Origin: an uncultured Desulfospira sp.
Lineage (GTDB): Bacteria; Desulfobacterota; Desulfobacteria; Desulfobacterales; Desulfobacteraceae
Length of the DNA stretch: 64,000 nucleotides
Assembly (NCBI GenBank): GCA_963663165.1
Contig: OY760175.1
Span: 5,376,001-5,440,000 of the forward strand
Reading direction: 5' to 3'
Made by a program: the position numbers and the translations under genes. Shown here piece by piece: positions 36,930 to 64,000 of this stretch; positions within the stretch are counted from its first letter, which is position 1, and every line of letters starts with the position of its first letter. The notes under the pieces were generated by a model, which saw only the letters and a program-made list of their open reading frames with translations, had not been told where the DNA came from and did not search any database.

Positions 36930-37030
36930 TTTAAATATCCATCCTTATCATTCTCAAACTATACCAGATGGTGTTCCCGGTTGACAAGCTTCCTGAAAGG
37001 TGTGGAAAAATTAAAATCCAAAAGCCATCC

Positions 37031-37114
37031 GTCTCAATCCTCTCTAATCGAGGCAACGGTTCTGGCAAAGAACAGCTGGCCTTTATTCGAGATGGTTATC
37101 AAGTCTCAATCCTC
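37031..37114 (-). CRISPR. Relic array fragment: repeat, 36-bp spacer, partial repeat
   Basis: gtctcaatcctctctaatcgaggcaacggttctggc (37031-37066), spacer 37067-37102, gtctcaatcctc (37103-37114). Confidence 0.85.
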
Positions 37115-45660: not shown

Positions 45661-46674
45661 CTAAAACGTCACCGGCTGATACCGGGCTTCTGTGCCTAAA
45701 AGATAGCCGGCAAAACAGCGGACCTGGGTCTGGATGGTGCCGCGAAAGGAGGCAGAACCCCGCATCAGCTCTTCATATGAGACAATAAAGGTCTTATAAA
45801 GGTGGGGCTTCATTTCAACGGGCCTGAGGGCGGCCATCTCCTTTTCATCTGCATAGGTTTTCATCGGGGTGTCCCGGTAATGGAAATCATCCGGCCGGAC
45901 CATTTTCCGATTCAGCAGGTTCAGCACAAACCGGTCGCCGATCAGGCACCGGTACTCCTCCACCAGATCACAGGCCAGGGAAGGCCGGCCATATGCAATT
46001 TCATGCAGGGTCCCCATATAGGGATCAAGCCCACAGCTTTTTATTGCGGATATCACCTCATTTGTCAACAGGGTATAAACAAAGGAAAGCAGGGCATTGA
46101 CCGGATCTTTGGGCGGCCGCCGGTTCCGGTTGGGAAAATGAAAATCCTTGTTCCGAATCAGCAGGTTAAATACGCTAAAGTAAATCCGGGAGCCCGCCCC
46201 TTCAAATCCCCGGACCGCTTCGGGGGTATCGGCCCGGTTCAGGCCGGCGGACAGCGACTTTAAACCGGCAGCCGCCGCCCCAATGCGCGGCTCTTTATAG
46301 TCCCGCCCCCGCCGGGCCAGGAACCAGGCCATGTTGGCCAGTTTTCCAGAGACAATGGCCTTCATCACCAAAAGCTTGAAGGCCGGTTCTTCAAGCCTTG
46401 TGTACTGGGCTTTGCGCAAGGCCACATGCTTGTGTTCATCAATCATAAGCCGGGCCCTGAACCGCCCGGCGGCCGTTAGGAATACGGTTTCCACCCGGTT
46501 TTGGATCAAAAAATCCATAACCGGTCCGCTCAGGGAGATGTTGCCGGTTAAAACCAGTTTATCCAGGCCCTTTGCCGGCAGGCTGTCCACCAGGTGCCCC
46601 TGCTTGACAATATCAAGGCTGGCGCCGTTCTTTTTAAGATACGCCCCCGGCTCAACCACGTACAGGGTTTCCAT
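45661..46674 (-). CDS. cas1: CRISPR-associated integrase Cas1
   Basis: RGFEGAGSRIYF, RNRRPPKDPVNALLSFVY, GLDPYMGTLH, SLACDLVEEYR. Confidence 0.97.
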   Translation of the reverse strand: METLYVVEPGAYLKKNGASLDIVKQGHLVDSLPAKGLDKLVLTGNISLSGPVMDFLIQNRVETVFLTAAGRFRARLMIDEHKHVALRKAQYTRLEEPAFKLLVMKAIVSGKLANMAWFLARRGRDYKEPRIGAAAAGLKSLSAGLNRADTPEAVRGFEGAGSRIYFSVFNLLIRNKDFHFPNRNRRPPKDPVNALLSFVYTLLTNEVISAIKSCGLDPYMGTLHEIAYGRPSLACDLVEEYRCLIGDRFVLNLLNRKMVRPDDFHYRDTPMKTYADEKEMAALRPVEMKPHLYKTFIVSYEELMRGSASFRGTIQTQVRCFAGYLLGTEARYQPVTF

Positions 46675-46690
46675 GCCGTAACCTCCGGTT

Positions 46691-48352: not shown

Positions 48353-48388
48353 GATATCTGCTTTCTTGTATTTGTGTGAACCGGGCCG

Positions 48389-49759
48389 TCAATGTCTGAC
48401 CATGGCCCGGAGCCGGTCTATTTTGGGATAATGGTACGCTGCGCAGGATTCCAGCTCGGTCAGCAGCTGATCCGCCTTTCGTGTATCCCCGGCTTTAAAT
48501 GTGCAAAGGCTTTGCCAGAAAAGGCCTTCCAGGAAAGGGTTGCCGAATGTGGTGCTGAAAAAATCACAGGCCCGGGCCGCATGGGCCGCAGCCGCATCAA
48601 AATGGTCCAGCCGGTATTCAATTTTGGTCAGGCGGATCAGGCCCACATGCCGGGAACGCGAATCCTTTTCCACCACCCGGGTTAATATCTGCCTGGCCTG
48701 ATCAAACCGGCCTGCGGTACACAGTACGTCGGCTTCAGTCCAGCGGTAGTAGGGCCGGCGAATTTTTTCAGGCACATGGCCAATGGTTTCAAGGGCTTTA
48801 TCCACCTGCCCCAGGGCCAGATAGGTCCGGGCCAAAAGTTCGTGGATAAAATCCGTGGGCCGCCCTTTGCCGCTGCTTTGAAGGGCAAACATCAGTGCGT
48901 TCCGGGCCTCATCAAACCGGTCCAGGGCAAAATGGACCTTGCCCAGGGCGAAATACTTGAATCCCAGGTTGATATGGTTGGTCTGCTCATCTATCTTCAG
49001 GCAGCCGGTGATCCGGTCCATGGCCTTTTTGCCGTTTCCCAGGGCCAAAGAGAGGCTGGCGCTGCGGTACAGGGATTTAATGTAATTCTTTTTTTCCTGG
49101 TGGCGTTCCTCCCGCTCCCGGTCGGTTAAGCCTTCCCAGTTTGAGCAGGCTTTGTCAAAACAGGAAAGCCCCGGTTTGGGCTTGTTTTCAATCTGGGAGA
49201 AAAGCATGCCCTCCCGGTAAAAGTTGGTCACCGTGTCCGGCCGCAGCTTCTGGGCCTTTTGAAAATATTCGTGGGCCAGGGAGATCCGTTCAGCCCGGGC
49301 TTTCCCGGCCAGAAACACCTGTTTGTTTTTGGCGGCCCACAGACTATTGTACGCGGTATATGCCAGGGATGCGCAGGCCATGAAGTGATCCGGTTCCGCC
49401 GCCACGCAGGTCTTAAGTTCCTTGAGGGCCTCGTCAAACCGGCCCGCCTGGCCCAGGGCAAAGGCCACCTTCAGCCGCACCGGGCCGTCCATCTTCCCGG
49501 ATACCAGATCCGGCACTTTTTCGTCTACCGGATGGTACAGGCTTAGCAGATCATCCCACCGGCAGCCCCTGGACAACTCGTCAATGTCGGAAAGGACCTG
49601 GTTTCTGTTTTTTTTCATGTACCGGCCCGCGGCCACCCCGAAAAGCTCCCGGTCCGAGAACAGCTCTTTTTGCCCGGGTTCCGGTACCACTGTTTCCGGA
49701 CCCGGTGTTGCCGTCCGGACAGATCCGATAATTCTTGCTGCTGCCTGAAGTTCTACCAT
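48389..49759 (-). CDS. TPR-repeat protein heading the CAPP-cas1 operon
   Basis: Multiple TPR units (AFALGQAGRFDEAL, LGKVHFALDRFDEA, LARTYLALGQVDKAL). Confidence 0.85.
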   Translation of the reverse strand: MVELQAAARIIGSVRTATPGPETVVPEPGQKELFSDRELFGVAAGRYMKKNRNQVLSDIDELSRGCRWDDLLSLYHPVDEKVPDLVSGKMDGPVRLKVAFALGQAGRFDEALKELKTCVAAEPDHFMACASLAYTAYNSLWAAKNKQVFLAGKARAERISLAHEYFQKAQKLRPDTVTNFYREGMLFSQIENKPKPGLSCFDKACSNWEGLTDREREERHQEKKNYIKSLYRSASLSLALGNGKKAMDRITGCLKIDEQTNHINLGFKYFALGKVHFALDRFDEARNALMFALQSSGKGRPTDFIHELLARTYLALGQVDKALETIGHVPEKIRRPYYRWTEADVLCTAGRFDQARQILTRVVEKDSRSRHVGLIRLTKIEYRLDHFDAAAAHAARACDFFSTTFGNPFLEGLFWQSLCTFKAGDTRKADQLLTELESCAAYHYPKIDRLRAMVRH

Positions 49760-50076: not shown

Positions 50077-51351
50077 TCATCTGAAATTCTTACCGTGGTC
50101 TTCAAATGAAAACGGATTAAGAAACTGGCGGCCCCAAAGCAGTTTTTTATCCACATCACTGAGCTGGGCTTCCTCACAGACCTCATCCCAATGGTCCCGG
50201 ATCACGGCTTCAATATGGGCGCACATGTCAAGGGCCTCTTTTTCCGCCAATAAGAAATGGTGGGCCGTCTCAATGCAATTTTTTAATTGGCTCAGGTTGT
50301 TGCTGCCATGAATTTTCATGGCCTGGGATGCCTCATTTCCGGCCCGGCCCTGGGGGCAGATGTCATATGCCGGTGTCAGTTCAAGCTGTTTGCCATCCCA
50401 GAACGCCGCATGGTTTCTGGCATGGTCATCGGTGTTGCCGCACAGGATATTGAACACCAACCGGCCAAACATCTCCTTGAGGGCCTTTTTAGGGGTTATA
50501 AACCGGTTTCGGATAATCTGGGCCAGATCCTGGTAGCTGGCGTACCTGGCCGTCATGTCGGTCAGCTCAAACAGGGTCAGCGCAGATACCATAAGCTTGC
50601 GTGTCCAGCCGGCCGCTGTTTTTATCCGGTCAAAGCGCTGGACCAGCAGCACATCTTTACCGGCCGCTTTAACCAGTTTCACGGGTGCCACATCAAGCCC
50701 GGCTGTCCCAGCCAGCCGCATGGCAATGAACTCTGCTTTAATCACGCTGTAAAGATCGGTATGGGAGGAAAATTTAGCAATATATTTAGTGCCGTGATCC
50801 TCTATCAATGCCTTTGGCCGGGCACCGCCGATGGAGGTGCCGTGAAACAGGGCCTGATCCAGTTCAGGACTTAACGGGGTGCCCTGCTCAACCCTTTGGG
50901 CCGATGCCAGTAACTCTTCCAGGCCGGCGTTGATCGCCGATCTTGGTACATACCGGGTTGGTGATGCCTGAAAATCCAGTGCGCCGATGCGATCCGACCC
51001 GGATTCCAATAAATAGGTGATCTCGCCCAGTTGCGTGGTGTCGGCGGTCACACCGTTGCGCCCCAGTTTCTTGTTGATGATCACACGGCGTCCCCAAGCG
51101 TCGGGCGCGGCATCTCTTATGCAGTTTGGCATATCCAGGCCGCCGATCAAGGGCAGTTTGCCGTGGATCAGGGGCAGCTCCGGTTCATAGATTGGAATCC
51201 CGGGTCTATCCGCGTTGGTGCGCTCAAGATAGCTTCTGCCGTAGTTGAATGTGATGACATGATCATCTGCTTCAAGTTTGCCTGCCACCACCGGATCAAC
51301 AGCGCCCGGCAGCCATATCCAGACAAATGCCTCATGGCCCTTAGAAGTCAT
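50077..51351 (-). CDS. hipA: HipA-family kinase toxin
   Basis: DAAPDAWGR, SIGGARPKA, RFDR, GNTDDHARNH, LTPAYDI. Confidence 0.92.
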   Translation of the reverse strand: MTSKGHEAFVWIWLPGAVDPVVAGKLEADDHVITFNYGRSYLERTNADRPGIPIYEPELPLIHGKLPLIGGLDMPNCIRDAAPDAWGRRVIINKKLGRNGVTADTTQLGEITYLLESGSDRIGALDFQASPTRYVPRSAINAGLEELLASAQRVEQGTPLSPELDQALFHGTSIGGARPKALIEDHGTKYIAKFSSHTDLYSVIKAEFIAMRLAGTAGLDVAPVKLVKAAGKDVLLVQRFDRIKTAAGWTRKLMVSALTLFELTDMTARYASYQDLAQIIRNRFITPKKALKEMFGRLVFNILCGNTDDHARNHAAFWDGKQLELTPAYDICPQGRAGNEASQAMKIHGSNNLSQLKNCIETAHHFLLAEKEALDMCAHIEAVIRDHWDEVCEEAQLSDVDKKLLWGRQFLNPFSFEDHGKNFR

Positions 51352-51673
51352 CGTCCACCTTGTCTGATGTTGACCGGATACGCTTGGGCAAAAGACAGAT
51401 TTTATCATCCATATGTTTTAACCTTATGGGCAGGGCCACCCCATCCTGCTCAAACAAATTAAGACCGGCCAGGGCGGCCACCTCAAAGGCCAGCCCGATG
51501 GACGGGGTCATTTCGCCTGATTCGATTTTTTGAAGGGTTGCCCTTGAGATCCCGGCACGTTCAGCCAAATTTTGTTCAGACCATCCCCGCTGCTTTCGGA
51601 ACAGTTTAATCTGTTTTCCAAGCAATAGGACCGCTTCTTTTGCGGTTGTGGAATATGTCCGTTTTCGTTTCAT
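51341..51673 (-). CDS. XRE-HTH antitoxin (HipB-like)
   Basis: RKQRGWSEQNLAERAGISRATLQKIESG; overlaps the hipA start. Confidence 0.88.
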   Translation of the reverse strand: MKRKRTYSTTAKEAVLLLGKQIKLFRKQRGWSEQNLAERAGISRATLQKIESGEMTPSIGLAFEVAALAGLNLFEQDGVALPIRLKHMDDKICLLPKRIRSTSDKVDDDF

Positions 51674-51876
51674 GGTGACTAATATAATTAATTTTAAGAC
51701 ATTCAATGGCTATTATATTGATCATATTCTGGTTTGTCAAACGATATGCTTTGAAAAATTGAGGATCGGGGTCAGGTAATGTAATGGAGGCCGGAAACCG
51801 GAAGAAGGGAGACCGGATGCGCCCTCCAAGGGAACCCGGCATCCGGCATCTATCGCTCCATTTTGGGTCAATGCAA

Positions 51877-52074: not shown

Positions 52075-53352
52075 TTATGGTTCCGGCTGCATCAGAAAAC
52101 CTTCCTGATTCAATGCCTGAACAATGGCTTGAAGGCTTTTAAAAAATGCCTCGCCCTTTTTCATAATATCTGTTTTTGCCTCTTTTTTGCTGGTCCAGGC
52201 ATGGTCAAACCCGTTTCGGTACGCGATCAGGTCTTGGGCGATTTCTTTCATTTTTATGATAATTTTTTTTTCCGCCATTGCCCGGAAAAGCGGTAGAATC
52301 GTTTGATGATGCGCCAGGCGCTCACCGCGAAAGTTCCACTCATTTTCATTTACCTGAAGCATATTAATGAACACATCTGCCTTTTGCCGTTGATCTCTCC
52401 TTTCCTTGTTGGTTATTCCCATATTTTCTTTCATCCGGATAAGCCCAAAAGACCCCAGCATCTCCCGCATCACCGTATAGGCCTGCATGAACAGCTTGTG
52501 TTCAAGGAGCAGCCGGACGATTTCCAACTGGATTTTGAAATAATCAAGGTCATACCGGCCGGAAAATGTTTTTTCAAAAACCAGGGAGACGAATTTTTCC
52601 TTGACCAGGTCGAACAGAATTTTGCCGGTCACACCGGCGTCATTTTCTTTTTGCCGGACAATGTCCAGTGCCCTGGATGCTTTCTGGGACACATTGTGGA
52701 TATCCACATTCTTCAATGCACCGGTAAGGTCTTGGAAGGCACAGATCAATTCCGGATCATTAAATTCATCGAGCTTGCCGGCTGCCTCATTTTCAGCCAC
52801 CACCGCCAATTTCCCCGGGTCGGCATCTTCAACCAGACGGGACACGGCATCGGTCCATTCATTGATCACGTAAAAATCTTTCATGTCAATAATGGGCGAC
52901 AGCTCTTTATTGCTCTCATAGGCCCCGTAATACACGGCTTTAAGCCGGACGCTCTTGGCTTTTTGCAAAAAATTCAGGGCCGTGGAAAAAACAATGGGAA
53001 TGATTCTGTATCCATGGGTCATATCAACGTACAGCTCATCCCCATGGTCGATATGACTGAGGATCTCCTCAAACCAGGACCATTGATCTTCAGGGTTGAG
53101 TTCTTCGGTTATGTCAATTTCCCGGACGTCATTAATCCCGATTTTTGAAAGTTCCTGTTGTAAACTCAGATAGTGCTTTTTCCGGGATGTGCTTGTCATG
53201 ACCAGGAAAATTTGATCGAAAAATCCCGGGCCGGCCAATTGAAGCTCAGCAAACTGGACATATGGGGATGGATCGGCTTTTTGGCCGTTAATATGGTAAA
53301 CAGCAGAATCATATTTGCCTGCCCCTAAAAAACTGATGTATATGCGCCTCAT
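52075..53352 (-). CDS. csx1: CARF-HEPN CRISPR ancillary nuclease (TM1812/Csx1-like)
   Basis: ISFLG, VDMTHGYRIIP, VYYGAYE, IIDM...W; HEPN motif RNGFDH. Confidence 0.85.
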   Translation of the reverse strand: MRRIYISFLGAGKYDSAVYHINGQKADPSPYVQFAELQLAGPGFFDQIFLVMTSTSRKKHYLSLQQELSKIGINDVREIDITEELNPEDQWSWFEEILSHIDHGDELYVDMTHGYRIIPIVFSTALNFLQKAKSVRLKAVYYGAYESNKELSPIIDMKDFYVINEWTDAVSRLVEDADPGKLAVVAENEAAGKLDEFNDPELICAFQDLTGALKNVDIHNVSQKASRALDIVRQKENDAGVTGKILFDLVKEKFVSLVFEKTFSGRYDLDYFKIQLEIVRLLLEHKLFMQAYTVMREMLGSFGLIRMKENMGITNKERRDQRQKADVFINMLQVNENEWNFRGERLAHHQTILPLFRAMAEKKIIIKMKEIAQDLIAYRNGFDHAWTSKKEAKTDIMKKGEAFFKSLQAIVQALNQEGFLMQPEP

Positions 53353-53388: not shown

Positions 53389-55491
53389 TTATCCGTAAGA
53401 AAACGGGAAAACCCTGTCATGGTTTTCTCTGACATACCTTAAGGCCTCTGGGAAAGGCCGGTCAAACAGAAAGTAGAAATGGTCCGGGTTCAACGCAGAA
53501 GCTGCCGGTTTGATCTGTTTTTCCCATTGGGAAAGGCCGGATAAAAAGGGTTGTTCCGGGGGCAGATCCGGCACAAAGGCCAGGGGCTTGAGGGCCATGA
53601 TTTCAATGGTCGGCCCCTGCCCGGTATTCAGGCAGACCCCCAGGCTTTTTTCAAAAAGCTGCCTGGCCGTTCCCCGGTCTTCCTTTATTAAGGCGGTCCG
53701 GCCCAGGTTAAAGAAAACAAGCTGCCAGGGGTGCTGAGTCTTAAATTGTTCAAAGGCATGGGACACCAGGGGATGATACCATTCATCAAGGCCCGGTAAA
53801 TTGCCCCGGGCCGCGAACCGGCAGAGCATGGAAATCTGCCATGGGGTAAGGGCATGAATGCTGTCCGGGCCCCGGCCGTCAAGGCAGGTTTCAAGGCAGG
53901 CATCGGCCCCGGCCATATCCTTTGCATTGAGCCGGGCCGTGCCAAGGTAGTCGTACTGGCGAATCCACTGATTTTTAAGTTCTGGCGAAAGGGGCTCGCC
54001 AAGGGCCTGCCGGGCCTTTACCGACAGGGTTTCAGTTTCCCGAATAGCATCCGGGCCGCAAAAGGCGAAATTTTGAACCAGGGTTCCGTATACCCGGCCA
54101 AGGGCAAGATCGGTCATGCAGCCAAAGGCCTGCTGGACAGCCTGCCGGCGTTCCATAAATTCAAGGAGCCGGGCCAGGGCCTTTGGCACTTTGGGTGAAA
54201 ATTCATACCGGTTGTGGGCCGCCACCAGGGCGTGGTTGAAAAAGTCAGCGGCAAGGTTGATATCCAGCCCCATGACCGGGTCTATAAATGCATTCCCCGT
54301 ATTCTCCCATTCCGTTGCCTGTCCGATTTTTCCTGAATGGTTGGCCAGGCTCAGATTGGCCGTACACCAGACCAGGCAGGCCATGGGCATGGCCCCGGGC
54401 AGGCCTTTGGGAGAAAATTCTGCCAGGGCCGCTGCCCTTTCAACCTCAAATTCTTCCACCATCAGGGCAAACTTGCGGACAAATCGTCCAAACAGGTCCG
54501 GGCAGCTGAATATCCGGCCCAGCAGGTCCTGAACCGCTTGCTTTTCGTGAAAGATCCAGTCTGCGGGCAGGCTGTCCATCTTATCAATAAAGGATGCCGG
54601 GTCCTGAAGGGCCCGGGAAAAAACAAAGAGCAGGTTGTCCTGCCGGCCGGAGTATAGGGAGGCCACGGTAACGCTTTCGGCAAAACAGGACACCGGCACA
54701 AGCCCTCTGGCGTTATGTCCGGGCCTTGAGCCTGCCGGAATCAGCAGGCATTTGAACCTGGAAGAGAGCGCGGCCCGGATTTTCCGGTCGAGCATGCCAA
54801 CGGGCAGCACATCCCCTGAATCATTCAGGCCGCCTGTAGCGATCAGGTCTCCGGAAACCGGAATTTTATTCAAAAGGCTTTTAAAACCAATGCCCATACT
54901 TAAGCCCCCGGAGCGTCCTTTAAATTGGATCTGGCCGTTGGCCGGGGCCATGGGAAACAGAACAAACCGTGAATTTCCAGGGTCAGGCCCCGGGCGGCGG
55001 GCCAGGCGCTCTGCCGTTTTTATCGTTTCAATGAAGGGGGTGTCCATGGCCTTTTGTGCCCATTTCGGAATATGGACCGGCCCGGCTTCTCCAGGCACAA
55101 GGCCTGCCACAAACCAGGCGACCCTCGCCATGCCGCTGCCGGCCCCAAGTACGGGAACCCTGGCCCAGTCTCCTTGCACCAACCGGTTGAAGTCAACGCC
55201 TGAATATGTTTCAGGCCGGGTGTTTTCGGCTATAAAATCCCTGACCCATGCCGGCTTTGAAGGGCCAAGCAAATATACGGCCCCCAGGGCGCGGTGGAAT
55301 AATTCCAGGAGAACCGGATCATCCATATAAGAGAGGATATCATGATAGGCGGCCTTAAAATCATCAGGACCGGTTCCGCTCCAGGGAACACAGGCCAGAT
55401 CCGATATCATGGCCTGGAAGTGGCCCATGGCGTTTCGGGCGGCAAAGCACAGGTCCTTAATGGTATTCACATGGCTCACGGCAAATCCCAT
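53389..55491 (-). CDS. Lon-protease (S16 catalytic) domain protein with C-terminal TPR-like region
   Basis: KGRSGGLSM...IATGGL..SGDVLPVGMLDRKIRAA...LLIP; Ser and Lys 43 residues apart; no AAA module. Confidence 0.85.
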   Translation of the reverse strand: MGFAVSHVNTIKDLCFAARNAMGHFQAMISDLACVPWSGTGPDDFKAAYHDILSYMDDPVLLELFHRALGAVYLLGPSKPAWVRDFIAENTRPETYSGVDFNRLVQGDWARVPVLGAGSGMARVAWFVAGLVPGEAGPVHIPKWAQKAMDTPFIETIKTAERLARRPGPDPGNSRFVLFPMAPANGQIQFKGRSGGLSMGIGFKSLLNKIPVSGDLIATGGLNDSGDVLPVGMLDRKIRAALSSRFKCLLIPAGSRPGHNARGLVPVSCFAESVTVASLYSGRQDNLLFVFSRALQDPASFIDKMDSLPADWIFHEKQAVQDLLGRIFSCPDLFGRFVRKFALMVEEFEVERAAALAEFSPKGLPGAMPMACLVWCTANLSLANHSGKIGQATEWENTGNAFIDPVMGLDINLAADFFNHALVAAHNRYEFSPKVPKALARLLEFMERRQAVQQAFGCMTDLALGRVYGTLVQNFAFCGPDAIRETETLSVKARQALGEPLSPELKNQWIRQYDYLGTARLNAKDMAGADACLETCLDGRGPDSIHALTPWQISMLCRFAARGNLPGLDEWYHPLVSHAFEQFKTQHPWQLVFFNLGRTALIKEDRGTARQLFEKSLGVCLNTGQGPTIEIMALKPLAFVPDLPPEQPFLSGLSQWEKQIKPAASALNPDHFYFLFDRPFPEALRYVRENHDRVFPFSYG

Positions 55492-56627
55492 CCCGTGTGG
55501 TGGACAATAAACACGGCCAGGCTTTGGCCCGGGGAAAGGGGGCGGTCAAACAGGGCCATAAACCGCTTGCCGTGTCCTTCCCATACCCATTTGCAGGCCA
55601 TGAGCAGCCGGTTGTTTTCGTCCTTTATATAGCATTGAAACGCATCTTCGGGGATGTCATCGGGCAATCCCTCGATAACGCCGTTGACCGAATAGGACGC
55701 CGGAGGTGAGGCCTCGTATTTGATGTTGCATTCAATGGGCCTGGCATCCTGCATGCCCTCCTGGTTGAAACAAAAATACCCTGCCGTGATGGTGAGCCCG
55801 TCATTCTCAGCGGCCCTCATGGGCAGGACATGGGAAGGAAAGCGCAAAAGCGCCATGCACTCTTCAACGGTCCCGGGGGGCCAGTCCCAGCCAATGCCGG
55901 TGAATTTTTCTTCAAGTTTTGCCTTAAGCGCTTCAAGGCCGATGGGGACAGGGCGCTTTTCATGTTCAGCGGCTGTGCGCCCTGGGGCCATGGCGGCAAA
56001 GGCCTGCCCGATTTTCAGCTCAAGCTCCCTGAAAAAAATTCTGGGATCATGGTCCTGCATGGGCATGGGCTTAAGGGCCCATTCCGGCAAATGGTCCGGA
56101 TCTTTGGCCATCTTAAGGGCGCTTTCAATCACCTTTGGGGCCAGGGTCCCTAATAATGGCCCCATAAAGCGCTCCGGAAGGGTGTAGATATTCCAGGTCT
56201 GAATCAAAATTTCCGAAAGGCCCTGGATCATGTTTTCCGGGGGGACCAGGTCGCCGGGACCGGCCAGGGCCGTATCGGGCCACACCTGGGCCAGGGTCAC
56301 CATGCCGCCGGGTTTGATTTCAAGAAGCGCTGCCTGGGGGGCGTTGTAATAATCATCCCCCTGCCAGAACGAGAGTTCAGGGTCAAGTATCCGCACCTGG
56401 CCGGTTTGAATCGGGGAATTCTCCGGGGAAACGGTGAAATCGGCTTCCAGTTTTTCAGACAATATTTCCCAGGCCTCTATTTCGTCTTTGAGCATTGTGG
56501 AACAAAAGGGGCAGACCGCCAGATGACGCCGGAACTGCTCTGCATGTTCGAGATTCTGTTTAACCTTTAACGGCGGACAGGTTCTCAATTGTCTGGCCAG
56601 TGCCAGTGCCTGTTTTCTGGTATACAT
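55476..56627 (-). CDS. Putative zinc-binding anti-sigma factor with a MazF/CalpT-like middle domain
   Basis: HLAVCPFC (Hx3Cx2C ZAS motif); IQTGQVRIL...IQTWNIYTLP...LGTL; directly downstream of the sigma-like gene. Confidence 0.7.
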   Translation of the reverse strand: MYTRKQALALARQLRTCPPLKVKQNLEHAEQFRRHLAVCPFCSTMLKDEIEAWEILSEKLEADFTVSPENSPIQTGQVRILDPELSFWQGDDYYNAPQAALLEIKPGGMVTLAQVWPDTALAGPGDLVPPENMIQGLSEILIQTWNIYTLPERFMGPLLGTLAPKVIESALKMAKDPDHLPEWALKPMPMQDHDPRIFFRELELKIGQAFAAMAPGRTAAEHEKRPVPIGLEALKAKLEEKFTGIGWDWPPGTVEECMALLRFPSHVLPMRAAENDGLTITAGYFCFNQEGMQDARPIECNIKYEASPPASYSVNGVIEGLPDDIPEDAFQCYIKDENNRLLMACKWVWEGHGKRFMALFDRPLSPGQSLAVFIVHHTGWDLP

Positions 56628-56640
56628 GGATCATCCTTTC

Positions 56641-57690
56641 TTACATTTGTTCCCGGGGCGTGAGCCAGTCGTTTAAATTCCGGCACAGGCAGTCCATGAA
56701 AAAATCAAAATCCCTGCCGTCCTGGCCGTCGCCGTCATAGTCCGGCGACAGCCAGTTAAGGTCTCGCAAAAACGATTTAAGCTTTTTGTGGATCAACTTT
56801 TTCTGGTAGGAAAGGTTTGATTTCATCTTCATTAACTCGGATACGGCCTTGTGGGGCAGCCCTTTGCATTCATAATAAAAGAACAGGCGTTTTTCCCGGT
56901 CTTTTAACCGGTGAAAAAAATTACCGGCCCAGGTTGTGATCAGGCTGTTTTGGGTCTGATCCGCAGACTGGGTTCCGGGATGATGGGCCAGGGGATTAAA
57001 TTCGTCTTTATCCGTCCCGGCCATGGGGTATGAATCAACCCCGGGCTGCAGCACCACATACCGGCTCACCCAGGCTAGAAAATCCATAAGGTCGATCCGG
57101 ATACCGGGCTCACCGGTAAGCTTGGCTGAAGATGTCCAGAAATGGCGGGCCAGCCTGAGGATATTATCCCGGGTGTTCAGGGCGGTGTACTCCCCGGGCA
57201 GGTCAGGGGGAAAGCCTATGGTCATGAGATCTTCAATCATGACCAGGGTTCGCGGAAGGCCTTCAGAGCGGCTGAACAGGGTTTTTCCTCGGGGGGTGTC
57301 TTTGACTTTGAAAAATTCACCGGACTGGTTCAGGACATCCAGCACATGGCGGTAAAACAGGCGCCAGGTGTCTTTATAGATGTCCTGGCTGCCTTGTCTG
57401 CTCCTGGACAGGTCCATCATCCGGTGCCACAGGAATGTCCTGACCCGCTTCATGGCCCCTGGGCTTTTGCCCATCAGTTCGGCGGGCACGGTCTTGTCCC
57501 TGATCAGAAAAATCATCAGTTCCTGCCGGATATCATCGGGGTGGATCTGTTCCGGGGCAACGCCGTACAGGCCAAGTCTGGAAAGTTTCATTTTTTTGTG
57601 AACCGCATCAACAAGCCGGTCTACTGCATCGGCGTTTTCTTTTTTTTCAAGCCAGGCCTGGAATTTAAGTTTGAAACAGTTGTCATTCAT
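56641..57690 (-). CDS. ECF-like sigma factor with a long inter-domain insertion
   Basis: Region 2-like DDIRQELMIFL...FLWHRMMDLSR; region 4-like RLKDREKRLFFYYECKGLPHKAVSELM...IHKKLK. Confidence 0.72.
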   Translation of the reverse strand: MNDNCFKLKFQAWLEKKENADAVDRLVDAVHKKMKLSRLGLYGVAPEQIHPDDIRQELMIFLIRDKTVPAELMGKSPGAMKRVRTFLWHRMMDLSRSRQGSQDIYKDTWRLFYRHVLDVLNQSGEFFKVKDTPRGKTLFSRSEGLPRTLVMIEDLMTIGFPPDLPGEYTALNTRDNILRLARHFWTSSAKLTGEPGIRIDLMDFLAWVSRYVVLQPGVDSYPMAGTDKDEFNPLAHHPGTQSADQTQNSLITTWAGNFFHRLKDREKRLFFYYECKGLPHKAVSELMKMKSNLSYQKKLIHKKLKSFLRDLNWLSPDYDGDGQDGRDFDFFMDCLCRNLNDWLTPREQM

Positions 57691-57755: not shown

Positions 57756-57782
57756 TACGGAGCCGGAAAGGAAAGTGTTAAA
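57756..57782 (-). promoter_or_regulatory. Putative autoregulatory ECF-type promoter of the sigma operon
   Basis: TTTAAC-N15-TCCGTA, 66 bp upstream of the start codon. Confidence 0.6.
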
Positions 57783-57884: not shown

Positions 57885-58050
57885 CTAAAGAACCCCGCCG
57901 GTTTTTATAAGATAGTCTGTGAAAAAAGCATTGGACCAGAGGGTTAACTCTTCTTTGCGTTTTGTATCTTTAAGAAAGGGTTCAACATCTTTTTTTGCCA
58001 ATTCAAAATCAATTCCATTGGCCTTTTCGCATAATAACCGGTGAAGCATT
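57885..58050 (-). pseudogene. C-terminal fragment of an AbiEii-type nucleotidyltransferase
   Basis: IDFELAKKDVEPFLKD...LTLWSNAFF; abuts the trailer repeat of array 2. Confidence 0.55.
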
Positions 58051-59025
58051 TCCTTCCTCTCTAATCGAGGCAGTCTTTCTGACTTAGCAATTGAGCATCT
58101 CGAAAAAGTCATTCATGAGGTCTCAATCCTCTCTAATCGAGGCAGTCTTTCTGACCAAAATTTTATCGAAGAAAATTGGTCGGCATTTGAGGTCTCAATC
58201 CTCTCTAATCGAGGCAGTCTTTCTGACTTGAAACATAGTTATTTTGGTTGGCAAGCTGTTAAGTCTCAATCCTCTCTAATCGAGGCAGTCTTTCTGACCA
58301 GACAATGAATTTGTTCAAAGTGTGAACAAAAAAGTCTCAATCCTCTCTAATCGAGGCAGTCTTTCTGACAAATGTTAATAAAGCGGAATGGAAAGTTGTT
58401 CAGCCGTCTCAATCCTCTCTAATCGAGGCAGTCTTTCTGACTTGAATACCAGAATGAAATCAATGGATGAAAAGTACAGTCTCAATCCTCTCTAATCGAG
58501 GCAGTCTTTCTGACTGTTTATGGCGAAGACATGGTTACCGAATGCCTGAATGGTCTCAATCCTCTCTAATCGAGGCAGTCTTTCTGACCAATTTACTTGG
58601 TCTCGTGCAAAGACCTTGCTTACAGGTCTCAATCCTCTCTAATCGAGGCAGTCTTTCTGACGTGCAGGCTCGAATAATTGACTACCGCGCTATATTTAGT
58701 CTCAATCCTCTCTAATCGAGGCAGTCTTTCTGACCTACCAGCCCGACGAATTATCGGGTTATAACATGGTGTCTCAATCCTCTCTAATCGAGGCAGTCTT
58801 TCTGACTGGTTGGCACATAAACAAGAAATAACTAAAACACTAAGTCTCAATCCTCTCTAATCGAGGCAGTCTTTCTGACTAATCCATCTGTGCCCTTTGG
58901 GGCAGAATTTTCTGTGTCTCAATCCTCTCTAATCGAGGCAGTCTTTCTGACAAACAGGAGCTTGTAGTATTCAATAATTGGGTTAATGAGTCTCAATCCT
59001 CTCTAATCGAGGCAGTCTTTCTGAC
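58048..59025 (-). CRISPR. CRISPR array 2: 14 repeats, 13 spacers
   Basis: 36-bp repeat GTCAGAAAGACTGCCTCGATTAGAGAGGATTGAGAC (minus strand); leftmost repeat degenerate. Confidence 0.99.
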
Positions 59026-59225: not shown

Positions 59226-59549
59226 TCATGACACGGAATACGCCTTTGTATTGGGCAGATCCCCGGTGCCGGAGAATTCAACATGCCCGACGCAATGCCT
59301 GCAAAGCGGGTAATACCGGATGGTATCCTCCCCATGGTCAATGACTTCTTCCAGGTCAGACTGCATTTTCATGAACTTGTATTCGGTCATGTTGCTGCAC
59401 TCAAATACGGATTTCTGAACCCGTGTCCCTTACCCTTTCAGGATTTTCACTACCCTGTACCGGACCCGGTTGTCAACAATATCAAAGCAGACCAGGAAAA
59501 ATTTATACCCCGAACCAGAAAAATTCAAACCCGTATTCAGACTCTCCAT
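59226..59549 (-). pseudogene. cas2: Cas2 with an in-frame stop codon
   Basis: Not in the ORF track. Reads MESL...FFLVCFDIVDNRVRYRVVKILKG*GTRVQKSVFEC...DTIRYYPLCRHC; TAA at 59430-59432. Confidence 0.92.
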
Positions 59550-60232
59550 GGCAAAGCGGCCCGGACGTTGGCCGGTATTGTATATTCCGGCAACCGGTAA
59601 CCGCCGGATTCATGGAAAGACTGAAGTACATCTATCAGGAAATAATCATTGGAGACTACTACAATGGTATGATCGCTATGCTTTCGTGCATACTCGCAGG
59701 AAAACGAAGCGATAACCGAATCCAGGCCGTCAAGGAGTTTGCCGTTTTTAAGGCTTTTTTCATTTCGCTTCTTTTTTTTGGCGAACTTCTCATCAAAGGG
59801 ATTCTCAATGAGCTTTTGCTCACTGTATTGAATGTTTTTTCTAAGCCTTTTTGTTATTTTTTTTATTGCGCCCTGTGACATTTTCTGGTTTGTAATACTT
59901 TCGGCCCCTTTAAAAATATCAGTGTACGAAATATGCGATTCCTCGCACAACGTCCCCCGGTACTTTTTTAAATGACGGTACAGCAGGCCAAAAACGGAAA
60001 ATCTGTTTTCAAACCATTTGTCGTAGTTTTCCAGATCAACATTCTTATGAAACCATAACCCGAGAAATTCCGCCCACACAAGGGAGGGGATGCGCGTCTT
60101 TGCCCCGCATTTTTCCCAGTACCTGAGCGTAGATGTGTGCCAGGGCTCGCACTTTTTTGATCCAAGCAGAATGGCCTCGGCCAGGTTAAACAGGATATTG
60201 GTATCCGGAAGAAAAATTGGATTTTTAATCAT
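59537..60232 (-). CDS. PIN-domain protein
   Basis: FLPDTNIL, VWAEF, LDSVIA, VVSND (PIN acidic residues). Confidence 0.75.
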   Translation of the reverse strand: MIKNPIFLPDTNILFNLAEAILLGSKKCEPWHTSTLRYWEKCGAKTRIPSLVWAEFLGLWFHKNVDLENYDKWFENRFSVFGLLYRHLKKYRGTLCEESHISYTDIFKGAESITNQKMSQGAIKKITKRLRKNIQYSEQKLIENPFDEKFAKKKKRNEKSLKNGKLLDGLDSVIASFSCEYARKHSDHTIVVVSNDYFLIDVLQSFHESGGYRLPEYTIPANVRAALPWRV

Positions 60233-61202
60233 TGTCCATGTCCTCCGCATCATCCAAGTCTTCCCATTCGTCCGGTTTCAGTCCGGCGATATCTTCCGCT
60301 GTCATGGGAACATAGGGAACCTGATCCTGATCCGGAAAATTAAAAATTTCATTTTCGCCATACCAGAGCAGGGCCTCTTCAACAGCCTTATCAAACTCTT
60401 TTTCAAATACCGGAGAGTTAAGATCAAGCATCCGGAAGGGTGAGGCATTAATAATTTTCAGGATCTGTTTTTCATCTTCTTTTGCCGCACCCGTACAAAC
60501 AATCACGTTGGGGGTCGGCTGGACCGAAAATGCTGCTGTGATATGATCTTTAAAAAATTTTCGTCCCCGCAGGTCTTTGGGGGGGGAGGGTATAAGAATG
60601 ACAACCAGGCAGGGATCATGCTCCCGGCATTTATCAGGAATCAGGTCCAGACTGTCAACAACGACCAGGTCTTTATCAAGCTTGGATTTAATGAAATCCA
60701 GAGAAATCTGACAGGATTCCCGGTACAGCAGTACAGCATTCGAATGGGACCGGACGGAAGGAGCCGGTATGCTATGTGAGATCTGCTCCTGACTTTCAAA
60801 CAGCTTGTTAACAACCGATATAAGCTGCTCTTCGCCTCCTCCCCCTCTTTTGTCTTTGTGAACATAGGCGTAAAAATGGTAGTTGGCAGCCGTAAACCAG
60901 TCTTTTACAGTTCCCCTGGCACTGTAAACAATCACGTTTCTCAGAGAGGAGAGCCGCCGCAACACCTCGCCAACGGTTGCCCCGTTGCCGTCAAACTCAT
61001 CCTGCACCTTCCCCATGTCGATATCCAGCAGGTAAAGATGAAAGTAATGCCGGCGGGAAAGGGAGAGCACCTCAGACATATGGTCTGTGCGATGCACGGC
61101 ATACCCCAGTTCTTCAAGGCTCTGTGCAGCCATAAAAGCCGGCTCATCCGGGTTGAAAATTTCATCGTCAAGAAAAAGAATGTTAAACTCGTTTTTATCC
61201 AT
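60225..61202 (-). CDS. Response regulator (receiver + probable degenerate second receiver, no DNA-binding domain evident)
   Basis: ILFLDDE, LLDIDM, GNG, IVYSA, AYVHK. Confidence 0.85.
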   Translation of the reverse strand: MDKNEFNILFLDDEIFNPDEPAFMAAQSLEELGYAVHRTDHMSEVLSLSRRHYFHLYLLDIDMGKVQDEFDGNGATVGEVLRRLSSLRNVIVYSARGTVKDWFTAANYHFYAYVHKDKRGGGGEEQLISVVNKLFESQEQISHSIPAPSVRSHSNAVLLYRESCQISLDFIKSKLDKDLVVVDSLDLIPDKCREHDPCLVVILIPSPPKDLRGRKFFKDHITAAFSVQPTPNVIVCTGAAKEDEKQILKIINASPFRMLDLNSPVFEKEFDKAVEEALLWYGENEIFNFPDQDQVPYVPMTAEDIAGLKPDEWEDLDDAEDMDND

Positions 61203-61215
61203 GTCAGATTCCTTT

Positions 61216-62583
61216 CTATTGTGGGATCTTGCTTCTAATTATAAAGATAGTGGACGCCCGGCTCACTGAGATGTCGATGCTTAATTCCATCATATCACAG
61301 GCCTTTTTGACAAGAGAGAGCCCTAATCCCGTATTCTGGGCCACCCCTTTTTCTGAAACATAGGGATCAAAGACCCGGTTGTTGCGCAACAGGTCCTCTG
61401 GGATCCCTCCGGCAAAATCTTTGAATGTAACAGTATCCCTGTCATAATCCACATCAATGGTCACTGCCGGATCCGGCACGGGGATGTTCCGGCGTTCATA
61501 AGCCTCTTTCGAGTTTAGTATCAGATTTTCAAAAATGATCTTCAGATACCCCCGGTCAGAGAGCCACAGCTTTGCCTCGCCCTCAAAAGAAACAGAAATT
61601 GTAACAGGACTCCAGCTTGTCAGTGTTTTAAAAAATTCTTTCAGGTCCACATCTTCAGGTTCAGGTCCTTGGTTTCTGGATAGACTGAGGATCACCTCCA
61701 TATCCCGGATAACCTGTTCCATTATTACCGGTTCTTTCATATCCGGGGCCTTTTTCCTGGTTCTGTCCACCAGGGAGGTGAGGCTGGATATCTTGGAGTT
61801 GACATCATGATCAAACCTGTGGAGCTGTTCCTGGACCGTAAGGCTGTCAATGAGCTGGCTTCGCCGTGTATGGGCAAAAGAATTTCCGGGATAGGCTTCA
61901 AGACTTTTATCCAGAAAATCCACAGCCCTGCGGGTCAAAAAATAGTAGTTTTGATCTTCGGCTTCAGGATCTGAATATGCCAGTTCCGAGAGAAGTAAAA
62001 ACAGGTTGGAACGGCTTCTGTCAAGATCATCGGCGTTTTGGGTCAGATCAAAGAAAAAATGGATCAGATTTTTGGTGTTGACCACATTCTGGTAATTATT
62101 TCCCCGGCGACGGAAATTGGCCCGCTCCCTGAAAATTTCCCTGATAATGACATCGTAAAAAAGCCTTGCATCCCGTTTGCCTTCAATGGTCAAAGCCTTT
62201 ATAAAGCCGGGAACAACATCCGCCAGCCAGGATTTCAGATGTGGTGCCTGACGGGTAAATGGATCATTGTTTTCCGTGAACCGAACCAGGCCCGTGTCAA
62301 TGGTGTAGTGGAGCAGTTCCTCTATGATATTGTTGGCCCATGTCACTGTATCCGTTTTTCGGGCAATGTCCAGATACTCAAAAAGACGGTTTTTAAACTG
62401 GGTGAACATGGCCTGTTCTTTTGAACGGGTATAAACAAAATAGATGCAGATCAGAATATTGTTCAGATTCCTGTAGCGGTATTCATCTGCAGGCGTACTG
62501 TCCAGGATCTCTTTATAGGCCCTGTAAGCCTTGTCATATTCCTTGGCCCTTAACAGGCTAAGGGCGTTTTGGGGATTTTCCAT
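61216..62583 (-). CDS. Cytoplasmic TPR-containing histidine kinase
   Basis: H-box RFDHDVNSKI, N-box FENLILNSKEA, DFAGGIP, FDPYVS, GLGLSLV; no transmembrane segment. Confidence 0.88.
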   Translation of the reverse strand: MENPQNALSLLRAKEYDKAYRAYKEILDSTPADEYRYRNLNNILICIYFVYTRSKEQAMFTQFKNRLFEYLDIARKTDTVTWANNIIEELLHYTIDTGLVRFTENNDPFTRQAPHLKSWLADVVPGFIKALTIEGKRDARLFYDVIIREIFRERANFRRRGNNYQNVVNTKNLIHFFFDLTQNADDLDRSRSNLFLLLSELAYSDPEAEDQNYYFLTRRAVDFLDKSLEAYPGNSFAHTRRSQLIDSLTVQEQLHRFDHDVNSKISSLTSLVDRTRKKAPDMKEPVIMEQVIRDMEVILSLSRNQGPEPEDVDLKEFFKTLTSWSPVTISVSFEGEAKLWLSDRGYLKIIFENLILNSKEAYERRNIPVPDPAVTIDVDYDRDTVTFKDFAGGIPEDLLRNNRVFDPYVSEKGVAQNTGLGLSLVKKACDMMELSIDISVSRASTIFIIRSKIPQ

Positions 62584-64000
62584 ATTTTCTCTTCGGCTTT
62601 TTAATCATGAATTGGTCAATGGGATAATAGGTTACATGTGCCAGGCTTTCAAAGGGATTGACAGGAGAAAACAAAATAACCTGCTTGAATTCTTTCAGCC
62701 TGTCAAGAAGGGATAAGCTTTTAATGGTATTGTCGCAGATCAATACGGCCAGATGTGTTGCCTTTTCAGCAACGGCATTGTCCAGCAGGTTGTAAATAAT
62801 TTTTTCCTGGGACTCATTTTTTCCTGAGGCTTGCCATTGGATGCCCATTTGCTTTAATGTTTTCTCGTAATTTTCCGGAGGAGCGTTATGTAAAATGATG
62901 TGCTTTTTAATTAACGCTTTTCCTGAAGTTTTGTTAACGATTTTACCAAGTTCGCGGAACTCAATTTTGAATCCTCGAAGGGCCTGGGTGAACTGAATCT
63001 GAATGCCGCCCCTGCCGGCTGCAGGCCGGGGCGCCTTTTTTAGCGGCCGGTCCTTTAAAACGGAGAGGGCCTCGGCAAGACTTAACCGCATCCGGGGTAA
63101 GGGGTTGAGCAGGCCGAGCAGGACATCTTTGAGCTTGGATGAAACCGTCATATTCCGGACCAGGTTCTCATAATCTGTTTTCCGGGTCAGACACTTCTGG
63201 CTGTACAGGTCATATGTATGGGCCGGTTTAATGGATAAAAGAACGTGGATTCCGGCCAGGTAAGCCAGGCTTTTTTCTTTTTCCCAGGCCTGATGTTCCA
63301 CTACTTCCGGCGGAATAATGACCCGGCTGCCCACGACCCGGCTGATCAGGGGATTGAGGCCGAATGGAAACATATTTTCGGACAGCAGCAGCCAGTATTC
63401 AAATATAAAGGGGTTACCCAGGGTGTCGGTCAGGAGAGTCTGCTCCGAGATACCGATCATCCTGAAATTGAGTTTATCCAGGGACAAGAACAGATAAAGC
63501 GTTTTCTCCAGGCCGGATTGAATGATCCAGGATTCCTGCCGGCTGTTCCGCCCTTCTATAAAGCCGGGCATGTGAAGGATATGCCGGTTGTCCCGGACGG
63601 TCTCGATCAGTTCGGGGCAGAAGGTTAAGTTCATGGTAAGGTGGCGAACTGCATTGTCAAGAAGACTGTCCCTTAACTGGGCAGTCATGGGATCAGGCTC
63701 TAATCCGTCATGAACAAAAGTACTCCATGCCGGGATATTAAAAAAATTTTCCTGTTTGCTGGCGGGAATATTGAAAATCGGCTGCCCTGATGCTTCCAGA
63801 TCGCGGATATTTTTGGGGTCTGCGGTCCAGTCCGGACTGAGGCGATAGGGCTTGTCCGGTGTCTTGCGTGAATAAGCATACGCCGGACGTCCCTTTTTTT
63901 TAACCTTCCTCTGGGTCAGGGCAAAGGAAAATTCCTGCATGGTTGAATAGCGCCGGTCCGGATCCTTGTCCAATGCGGTTTTAAATACGGGAATCCAGAA
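62558..64000 (-). CDS. Ser/Thr kinase-like protein (5' end beyond window): kinase C-lobe end, degenerate second kinase-like domain, possible degenerate NYN-like C-terminus
   Basis: Frame is open to the edge: PVFKTALDKDPDRRYSTMQEF; later IIPPEV...LLNPLPRMRLSLAEAL. Confidence 0.7.
   Translation of the reverse strand, partial: FWIPVFKTALDKDPDRRYSTMQEFSFALTQRKVKKKGRPAYAYSRKTPDKPYRLSPDWTADPKNIRDLEASGQPIFNIPASKQENFFNIPAWSTFVHDGLEPDPMTAQLRDSLLDNAVRHLTMNLTFCPELIETVRDNRHILHMPGFIEGRNSRQESWIIQSGLEKTLYLFLSLDKLNFRMIGISEQTLLTDTLGNPFIFEYWLLLSENMFPFGLNPLISRVVGSRVIIPPEVVEHQAWEKEKSLAYLAGIHVLLSIKPAHTYDLYSQKCLTRKTDYENLVRNMTVSSKLKDVLLGLLNPLPRMRLSLAEALSVLKDRPLKKAPRPAAGRGGIQIQFTQALRGFKIEFRELGKIVNKTSGKALIKKHIILHNAPPENYEKTLKQMGIQWQASGKNESQEKIIYNLLDNAVAEKATHLAVLICDNTIKSLSLLDRLKEFKQVILFSPVNPFESLAHVTYYPIDQFMIKKPKRKYGKSPKRP

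Follow-up and report, generated by a model that had tools for sequence, protein, structure and literature searches.

A 64,000-nucleotide (nt) stretch of DNA from an uncultured Desulfospira sp. (assembly GCA_963663165.1, contig OY760175.1, positions 5,376,001 to 5,440,000), referred to here as the window, carries three coupled genes between a CRISPR array and a csx1-type gene. They encode a sigma-like protein, an anti-sigma-like partner and an ATPase-less Lon protease that ends in a solenoid resembling tetratricopeptide repeats (TPR). Judged from sequence, the triad is probably a Calp-like switch in which proteolysis would release a sigma factor, wired to type III CRISPR and with its trigger left open. 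In the predicted structure, a conserved TPR-like solenoid stands where CalpL has its SAVED domain. To our knowledge, two CRISPR-linked cascades that lead from a protease to a sigma factor are known, one with CalpL, which is controlled by cyclic tetra-adenylate (cA4) via SAVED, and one with Csx29, which is switched on by contact with Cas7-11. Rouillon et al. in 2023 reportedly described CalpL-CalpT-CalpS as a SAVED-Lon protease, a MazF-like anti-sigma and a sigma resembling extracytoplasmic function (ECF) factors.

On the minus strand of the window, four same-strand genes were found directly downstream of CRISPR array 2, the last of them being the csx1-type gene. The array, the genes and the gene parts used below are located as follows (protein lengths in amino acids, aa).

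~58048-59025, plus strand: CRISPR array 2, with 13-14 repeats of the array 1 repeat family carrying two base changes, directly upstream of the sigma operon
56641-57690, minus strand: sigma-like gene, 349 aa, in which a region-2-like stretch (residues ~50-100) is followed, after a conserved ~140-aa insertion, by region 4 (residues ~250-310; 56761-56943)
55476-56627, minus strand: anti-sigma-like gene, 383 aa
56502-56579, within the anti-sigma-like gene: zinc-motif helical N-domain with C17/H35/C39/C42
56088-56420, within the anti-sigma-like gene: MazF-fold domain, residues 70-180, followed by helices at residues 195-241
55809-55826, within the anti-sigma-like gene: linker LPMRAA, residues 268-273
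55497-55796, within the anti-sigma-like gene: C-terminal beta-sandwich, residues 278-377
53389-55491, minus strand: ATPase-less Lon protease gene, 700 aa, with an N-terminal helical, predicted docking domain (residues ~1-100) and a Lon S16 domain (residues ~170-290)
53392-54624, within the protease gene: TPR-like solenoid, residues 290-700
54910-54912 and 54781-54783, within the protease gene: codons of the dyad residues Ser194 and Lys237, respectively
52075-53352, minus strand: csx1-type CARF-HEPN gene of the TIGR02221 family, 425 aa, with a DxTHG motif and RNGFDH (Rx4H) at residues 379-384

The open reading frames agree with an earlier, sequence-only reading of the window, which had placed three coupled genes between array 2 and csx1: a gap of 13 nt (56628-56640) separates the sigma and anti-sigma genes, and the anti-sigma and protease genes overlap by 16 nt (55476-55491). 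Were the protease to begin at an alternative GTG located four codons further on, the start used in database entry P0001 (696 aa), the overlap would shrink to 4 nt. The csx1-type gene matched TIGR02221 (E 3.1e-32) and TIGR02549 (E 3.7e-6) in NCBIfam, and its position relative to the triad is the same in loci L001 and L002 (loci are denoted by L numbers throughout).

For domain assignment, the protease was compared with Pfam and NCBIfam. Lon S16 was the sole protease family matched in the 700-aa protein (Pfam Lon_C, E 3.9e-6, residues 186-254), and neither an AAA+/ATPase module nor a CHAT caspase-like domain was matched in these two collections. A profile of the protease family, searched against the PDB, matched LonB-type protease domains with E 4e-12. 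Ser194 and Lys237, 43 residues apart, coincide in the alignment with the catalytic pair of Lon and are retained in 149/150 family members, which confirms the ATPase-less Lon domain with intact Ser-Lys spacing that had been read from the letters.

For the remainder of the protease, an AlphaFold2 model was calculated from a 10-sequence alignment, with a mean predicted local distance difference test (pLDDT) of 74.5 and a predicted template modelling score (pTM) of 0.61. Residues 290-700 are all-helical in this model, with ~20 helices at pLDDT ~85-95. Foldseek comparison of the model with the PDB returned TPR/ARM solenoids (LGN/Pins, NprR, Rap, importin-alpha; best E 7.7e-4). Among the Foldseek matches listed there was no SAVED or CARF entry, and scans of the protease with Pfam and NCBIfam gave no SAVED or CARF family, in line with the earlier description of ~400 aa of TPR-like helices without such a sensor. 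The solenoid is the best-conserved part of the protease family, and its residues H426, N427, G469, Q473, N474, H587, P588, Q590, N595, P696 and F697 are each retained in 118-148 of 150 members. In PDB searches with E<=10, no CalpL chain occurred among the 56 matches of the family profile or the 46 matches of the single protein, a remote relation being possible. A Csx29 chain was likewise absent from the matches of both searches; the supposed likeness of the sensor to that of Csx29 thus did not hold at the level of detectable sequence relation.

The size of the family depended on the search. A word-index homologue search yielded 10 relatives of the protease and understated the family, because an exhaustive profile search gave 1555 at E<=0.001; at E<=1e-30 the family comprises 287 cluster representatives (50% identity). 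Most of the proteins are 700-720 aa long. A 726-aa protein of L031 (G080:C21, 14411-16591) also ends in this C-terminal solenoid (profile positions 326-709, E 2.3e-21), there behind a different N-terminal part of ~320 aa. The gene of this protein adjoins a variant of the Lon-TPR triad and two CRISPR arrays. For its N-terminal 320 aa, the ESM Atlas pointed only weakly to DUF3800 (score 0.91, 157 shared features), and this hint was not used. The C-terminal solenoid may be a portable module.

The anti-sigma-like partner had 34 homologues in the word-index search. C17, H35, C39 and C42 are invariant in 28/28 homologues, so that the Hx3Cx2C motif pointed out earlier stands as a putative zinc motif with an upstream Cys ligand; the Pfam zf-HC2 match was weak (E 0.18, below its cut-off). 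Zinc-binding anti-sigma (ZAS) factors such as RsrA carry an Hx3Cx2C zinc motif in their sigma-binding domain. The AlphaFold2 model of the partner (mean pLDDT 85.8) starts with a helical N-domain; a beta-rich domain (residues 70-180) comes next, then a pair of long helices, a linker modelled with less confidence and, at residues 278-377, a C-terminal beta-sandwich. Foldseek assigned the MazF/Kid/CcdB fold to the beta-rich domain (E 8e-5, TM-score to the target 0.63-0.71), and VIA, independently of Foldseek, matched model residues 71-179 to MazF with Z 10.2 and a root-mean-square deviation of 2.8 A over 103/108 aligned residues. By sequence, the match to MazF was marginal (E 0.16). The C-terminal beta-sandwich gave weak fold matches in a VIA-wide search (Z ~5), and Pfam returned no DUF2080 match in the partner at E<=1. 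Compared with the PDB, the partner alone gave chance-level matches, and no CalpT chain was among the matches of either the single protein or the profile.

[quoted passage not shown] With a MazF-fold core in the partner, the connection to CalpT is closer than the sequence-only reading saw. Just ahead of the C-terminal domain, the linker shows the consensus [LP][ML]xAA[DE] across 28 aligned sequences, and A272 is conserved in >=90% of them. Since this linker is conserved and resembles the CalpT site, LPMRAA, which had been singled out as a candidate cut site, appears well placed on the alignment.

A MazF fold could also point to toxin release, by which cleavage would free an active MazF-type RNase from the 383-aa protein for abortive infection and the sigma would be an accessory. 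We regard this as highly improbable. The core of the protein does have the MazF/Kid/CcdB fold, but its resemblance to MazF is marginal by sequence, as given above, and the neighbouring gene encodes a true member of the sigma family that has a plausible regulon. Moreover, in the accessible part of bioRxiv 10.1101/2024.05.08.593097 the logic of the CalpT counterpart serves sigma sequestration. We therefore return to the partner as a probable anti-sigma within a protease-controlled switch.

For complex prediction, the whole protease (111-row alignment) was combined with partner residues 190-383. The pair, which the earlier reading had expected to associate, scored 0.74, the best control 0.00; the score of 0.74 was reached by 116/157 solved complexes and 2/215 mismatched pairs, counts that are only approximate, as own alignments were used here. 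The runs agreed in at least 61% of contacts, with a partner pLDDT of at least 73. The predicted interface joins protease residues 7-34, 121-124 and 239-245 to partner residues 278, 301-316 and 348-366, which places the docking at the edge of the Lon domain and on the helices of the N-terminus, and not on the solenoid. The solved complex of the CalpL N-domain with CalpT10 has the same arrangement in the accessible text of bioRxiv 10.1101/2024.05.08.593097, and the docking pass may partly be due to likeness to that complex. The model supports binding of the partner's C-terminal domain to the N-terminal helices of the protease.

The sigma-like protein scored weakly on its own, with Sigma70_r4_2 at E 0.062 (Pfam) and TIGR02937 at E 0.006 (NCBIfam), and had no match in the PDB. 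With a 27-sequence profile, all 17 of 17 PDB matches were sigma factors, the best being region 4 of FliA (E 8.4e-7). Pfam region-4 models matched several family members (Sigma70_r4_2 in 13/27, Sigma70_r4 in 7/27), and Sigma70_r2 matched 1/27 at E 0.057. In the relative from L042, TIGR02937 positions 23-163 match residues 36-301 with E 8.4e-9, which extends from region 2 to region 4 across the insertion. In the window's protein, the stretch DDIRQEL...FLWHRMMDLSR is region-2-like by eye only. Of the two regions assigned at first sight, region 4 was hence recovered by profile, and region 2 was seen via L042 and by eye only; with region 2 taken from these two, the 349-aa protein is read as an ECF-like sigma with an insertion of ~140 aa. 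A fused form was observed in L032 (G181:C26, 12349-15099), where the sigma homologue makes up the C-terminal 350 aa of a 916-aa protein, the N-terminal 550 aa of which match no family.

For the distribution of the module, genome contigs were scanned with the single protein, which gave no relative, and with an alignment, which gave three loci in named genomes (Desulfospira and Desulfobacter relatives). A relative was present in 18 of 401 genomes sampled from the phylum to which the window belongs. The phylum sample and the three named-genome loci form a set of 20 loci outside the window, and profile searches located sigma, partner and protease together in 18/20. The two exceptions, L031 and L034, have a full-length protease with other partners. 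In L031 these are a 254-aa ECF sigma and a zf-HC2 anti-sigma. In L034 (G193:C19, 559-10338), the Lon-TPR member stands directly after III-E-sigma-, Csx31- and Csx30-like genes and before RT-Cas1 (RT, reverse transcriptase), as if the Lon-TPR protein were in the place of Csx29; Cas10 genes are present in that genome and no gRAMP match was found in it. Kinship of the window's partner and sigma to the Csx30-like and III-E-sigma-like proteins of L034 was considered and rejected, with hhalign probabilities of 1.8% and 0.1%.

Cas genes or arrays occur within the fetched stretch of 16/19 full-solenoid genome loci (window counted), and the other three loci are contigs of 5.8-10.8 kb. Metagenomes were scanned with a seed on the solenoid motif, so that the same subfamily was sampled; this gave 78 loci, 41 of them of at least 10 kb, in which cas genes and arrays were called by phmmer with 41 query proteins from annotated loci and by a repeat finder. 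CRISPR arrays or cas genes were present in 34/41 of these long loci, and both sigma and partner in 33/41. Effector genes were found in 22/41 (csm-like in 11, cmr-like in 9, III-D-like in 6) and CARF genes in 18/41. A GGDD motif was present in 4/4 neighbouring Cas10 proteins checked. The proposed CRISPR association of homologous triads was borne out by these counts, and it is well supported that the module is real, widespread and CRISPR-linked. In many loci, a gene of ~310 aa was observed directly after the protease gene (L028, 11383-12156; L056, 10378-11313; L071, L076, L080, L082, L083, L090 and L091); its copies match each other by phmmer with E down to 1e-131, the Cas6 model matches weakly (E ~1e-5), and a copy heads the second effector operon in this genome.

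The wider protease family clearly has CRISPR-free branches. The cousins L043 and L044 stand beside curli genes (csgA/B/G, csgD) with no CRISPR nearby; they have sigma, partner and protease profile positions 23-412 and are without the C-terminal half of the solenoid. Such cousins would suit a stress-responsive CRISPR regulator that does not listen to the effector at all and answers to zinc-thiolate oxidation (RsrA-like) or to a phage or envelope cue, with Lon only for turnover and with CRISPR linkage because the regulon is the island. The invariance of C17 and H35-x3-C39-x2-C42 in 28/28 homologues would also fit, and control of CRISPR-cas by an ECF sigma/anti-sigma pair is known from DdvS/DdvA, as far as the accessible part of PMC6061681 goes. 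We consider this explanation improbable all the same. It would leave the ~400-aa sensor domain without a role, and the triad is linked to cyclase-competent Cas10 interference modules and CARF effectors, as are other signal-dependent accessories. Furthermore, the CRISPR-linked members share the conserved C-terminal solenoid half that is missing in the CRISPR-free cousins, which indicates a CRISPR-specific input.

The CRISPR surroundings of the triad comprise a second array and an adaptation operon within the window.

43289-45429, plus strand: CRISPR array 1, ~30 repeats of 36 nt with a periodicity of 71-76 nt
45661-49759, minus strand: adaptation operon, with genes for a TPR-S protein (48389-49759), a CRISPR-associated primase-polymerase (46691-48352) and Cas1 (45661-46674)

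The adaptation genes matched Cas_Cas1 (E 1.1e-87), NF040561 PrimPol_Msp (E 3.3e-135) and TPR-S PF20308 (E 7.4e-9) in Pfam and NCBIfam. Downstream of csx1, the gene order is a HipBA pair, the TPR-S/PrimPol/Cas1 operon and array 1. Effector genes were absent from the 64-kb window, and two type III operons were located 11-19 kb and 34-43 kb past its end. One contains cas10 (GGDD), csx10, three csx7, csx19 and a TIGR03986 RAMP (III-D); the other begins with a cas6-like gene and further comprises cas10, fused RAMPs, TIGR04423 and csx20. Between the two operons, RT-Cas1 is encoded. The gRAMP model NF041225 gave only partial sub-threshold matches in this genome (best 57 bits vs a cut-off of 700). The trio of TPR-S, primase-polymerase (AEP-TOTE / PrimPol_Msp) and Cas1 recurs beside the Lon-TPR triad in L001, L002, L033, L035, L040 and metagenome loci, and carries the promoter motif described next.

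For promoter prediction, upstream regions of the sigma and TPR-S genes of the window, L001 and L002 were aligned, which gave the motif TTTAA-N15/16-CTCCGTA. Two ECF-like promoter candidates lie in the window.

57756-57782, minus strand: TTTAAC-N14-CTCCGTA, 65 nt upstream of the sigma ATG, with the same site in L001
49820-49846, minus strand: ~60 nt upstream of the TPR-S gene of the adaptation operon, with the same site in L001 and L002

An AAC...CGTA flavour recalls ECF promoters. The count of 2 in the window vs 0.00 expected is circular, because the pattern was derived from those sites. In the 6.74-Mb genome, the exact motif occurred 5 times and a reversed control 4 times. Three of the five exact matches precede the first gene of a CRISPR operon by 47-65 nt, and the other two are antisense inside open reading frames. 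The third match in the CRISPR region is 47 nt upstream of the cas6-like first gene of the second effector operon. With up to one mismatch, the genome held 35 matches vs 40 for the control, and the motif in the form TTTAA-N15/16-[CT]TCCGTA precedes seven operons of the island. These 7 sites lie within 5,425,820-5,483,387 (58 kb, 0.85% of the genome; ~0.3 expected), all on the strand of their operons, the motif having been derived from 2 of them. The four additional sites are at the following distances ahead of a gene: 24 nt for the III-D cas10, counted to an ATG with a Shine-Dalgarno sequence in front of it, 58 nt for a PARP-like gene, 69 nt for a gene with a cREC domain and 344 nt for RT-Cas1. 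The PARP-like gene (E 4.3e-5) and the gene for a cyclic-phosphate-processing receiver, cREC_REC (E 1.9e-8), were observed in L007 (G000:5460001-5475000, 5673-6826). No sigma gene other than that of the triad was seen in the island, and its own operon has the first motif site.

Compared with the Calp system, an ATPase-less Lon with a Ser-Lys dyad and N-terminal helices predicted to hold the partner's C-terminal domain are shared with CalpL, and a MazF-fold core and an Ala-rich inter-domain linker with CalpT. An ECF-like sigma as output and a setting beside cyclase-competent type III are shared with CalpL-CalpT-CalpS as a whole, as described in the accessible parts of PMC11417357 and bioRxiv 10.1101/2024.05.08.593097. 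Unlike CalpL, the protease is without SAVED, has a ~410-aa TPR-like solenoid in its place, and its Lon domain matches best with LonB-type domains; the Lon-TPR protein is not a member of the CalpL family, because the defining SAVED domain of CalpL is absent. Unlike CalpT, the partner has an extra N-terminal Hx3Cx2C domain and a C-terminal domain without a Pfam DUF2080 match, and unlike CalpS, the sigma has ~350 aa with the ~140-aa insertion.

A TPR-bearing protease and an anti-sigma-like partner are also shared with Csx29/Csx30/Csx31/CASP-sigma, where an ECF-like sigma is released; in the accessible part of PMC10028731, CASP-sigma targets promoters in its own CRISPR locus, including that of cas1. 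One family member, that of L034, is directly beside Csx30/Csx31/III-E-sigma-like genes. The differences are a Lon-type Ser-Lys protease here and a CHAT-type Cys-His protease in Csx29, a TPR region that is C-terminal here and N-terminal there, and, relative to type III-E, neighbouring effectors with a GGDD-bearing Cas10 and no gRAMP above the cut-off in this genome. Lacking a CHAT domain and a gRAMP association, the Lon-TPR protein is therefore not a Csx29. In the RseA/DegS-RseP/ClpXP pathway, cleavage exposes an Ala-Ala C-terminal degron and the fragment is passed to house-keeping proteases. The present system differs from RseA and ZAS systems in being cytoplasmic and CRISPR-embedded, in its dedicated Lon-TPR protease and in the MazF fold within the anti-sigma.

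A full-text literature search gave no description of a Lon-TPR Calp variant, although supplementary tables of surveys might list the family under a cluster number. Lon entries in the accessible parts of PMC11229360, PMC6546367 and bioRxiv 10.1101/270033 refer to a type III accessory cluster labelled "Lon protease" and to a membrane CARF-Lon fusion. What is new here is that the CalpL/CalpT wiring is retained with an input domain of neither known kind, so that the sensing principle is potentially new.

The following sequence of events is proposed for the switch. At rest, the anti-sigma would hold the sigma via its zinc-motif helical domain and MazF-fold core, while its C-terminal beta-sandwich would be parked on the N-terminal helices of the protease, as predicted. 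Upon recognition of foreign RNA by a type III effector, a signal common to III-A, III-B and III-D would reach the TPR-like domain, which is the least certain step; most likely this signal would be a diffusible compound, for instance cA4, made by the GGDD cyclase of Cas10, and would switch the protease on. Activation would possibly proceed via assembly, with one protease cutting the substrate held by another, as in CalpL. Ser194 and Lys237 would cut the anti-sigma in the xAA[D/E] linker, the new Ala-Ala end would act as a degron, and house-keeping proteases would remove the N-terminal fragment and so free the sigma. Going by the sequence statistics, the sigma would direct RNA polymerase to TTTAA-N15/16-[CT]TCCGTA promoters and thereby to its own operon, TPR-S/PrimPol/Cas1, RT-Cas1, both type III effector operons and the PARP-like and cREC genes. 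The result would be a feed-forward boost of CRISPR immunity and spacer uptake.

Within this switch, a diffusible Cas10 product is the trigger towards which we lean, at a little under an even chance, the remainder being shared by direct protein contact and some other cue. We do so because one conserved solenoid serves csm-, cmr- and III-D-type neighbours, because neighbouring Cas10 proteins keep GGDD and CARF effectors are frequent in the loci, and because it is precisely the C-terminal solenoid half that sets the CRISPR-free cousins apart. Occurrence across subtypes together with a GGDD Cas10 is more in keeping with a signal that diffuses than with a contact specific to one subtype.

The TPR-like domain might instead be a protein-contact sensor as in Csx29 and bind a target-engaged type III complex, Cas10 or a phage protein, which we hold to be rather unlikely. 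TPR solenoids usually bind proteins or peptides, and the best fold matches of the solenoid are peptide receptors or scaffolds, namely LGN, NprR, Rap and importin-alpha. Conserved Asn, Gln and His residues in solenoids typically read a peptide backbone, and H426, N427, Q473, N474, H587, Q590 and N595 are retained in at least 118/150 members. Contact sensing would further agree with L034, the member of which adjoins Csx30/Csx31/III-E-sigma-like genes, the substrate set of the contact-activated Csx29, and with the predicted docking of the anti-sigma elsewhere, which leaves the TPR region free for a partner. However, one surface would need to fit csm, cmr and III-D complexes (11, 9 and 6 of 41 loci), a distance of 20-50 kb separates the triad from the effectors in this genome, and the genome of L034 has Cas10 genes and no gRAMP match. 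A diffusible Cas10 product thus stays our preferred trigger.

A broader proposal, which we put forward as possible yet doubtful, is that the solenoid represents either, next to CARF and SAVED, a third receptor type for a messenger produced by Cas10 or a universal contact sensor for Cas10-containing III-A/B/D complexes. In either case it would gate a Lon protease with interchangeable substrates (MazF-fold anti-sigma, Csx30/Csx31 set, other zf-HC2 anti-sigma), and the output, via a dedicated sigma and a defined promoter motif, would switch on the whole island with its two effector operons, two adaptation modules and the triad itself.

Several observations weigh against a Calp-like switch triggered by a Cas10 product. 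The Lon domain is poorly predicted in the protease model (pLDDT <50), and region 2 was not detected by Pfam in the window's own sigma protein. PDB searches at E<=10 revealed no relationship by sequence with either CalpL or CalpT, and the likeness may therefore be convergent. No known cyclic-nucleotide-binding fold was seen in the AlphaFold2 model of the protease and among the Foldseek matches listed, and we know of no TPR-type receptor for cyclic oligoadenylate. The 20-50 kb between the triad and the effector operons are in this genome occupied by unrelated genes, and 7/41 long metagenome loci were without a cas gene by the limited query set, which may be misses. In addition, a different sigma or regulator could be the one that reads the promoter motif.

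The remaining features of the window concern its mobile and neighbouring genes. A HipA/HipB-type toxin-antitoxin pair (HipA_C E 1.9e-49, HTH_3 E 7e-13) was found at 50077-51706, between csx1 and TPR-S/PrimPol/Cas1. Between csx1 and the TPR-S gene, L001 has no gene and L002 has DprA-like and RecQ-like genes; since these loci differ at that place, the HipBA pair is an apparent local insertion. Between array 2 and the III-D operon, a same-strand run (window 59537-63973 and L006 914-9767) encodes a PIN-like protein, a response regulator, a histidine-kinase-like ATPase, a 471-aa unknown protein, VWA, a PP2C phosphatase, a double AAA+ protein (SpoVK/CbbX-type) and a radical-SAM activase, and may be another defence or signalling system. 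Degenerate solo CRISPR repeats lie distant from the arrays at 14630-14680 and 37016-37066. A DruA-like gene and a 466-aa gene are present in two copies (15126-17584 and 33894-36352) that include a 300-nt stretch of 100% identity, and there are several transposase genes; the CRISPR island appears to have been rearranged by mobile elements. At window positions 1-8932, a nitrogenase cluster was observed, with a nifH-like gene, four Oxidored_nitro genes and one radical-SAM gene.

Protease/reporter pairs of Csx29 and CalpL have already been made into RNA sensors. Learning what the solenoid responds to would either bring in a new class of cyclic-nucleotide receptor or demonstrate that complexes of the Cas10 type can signal by contact. 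The seven-site motif is a rare, directly testable prediction of the targets of a sigma, which would here cover interference, adaptation and its own operon. The triad thereby bears on how infection sensing feeds back on CRISPR expression and spacer acquisition.

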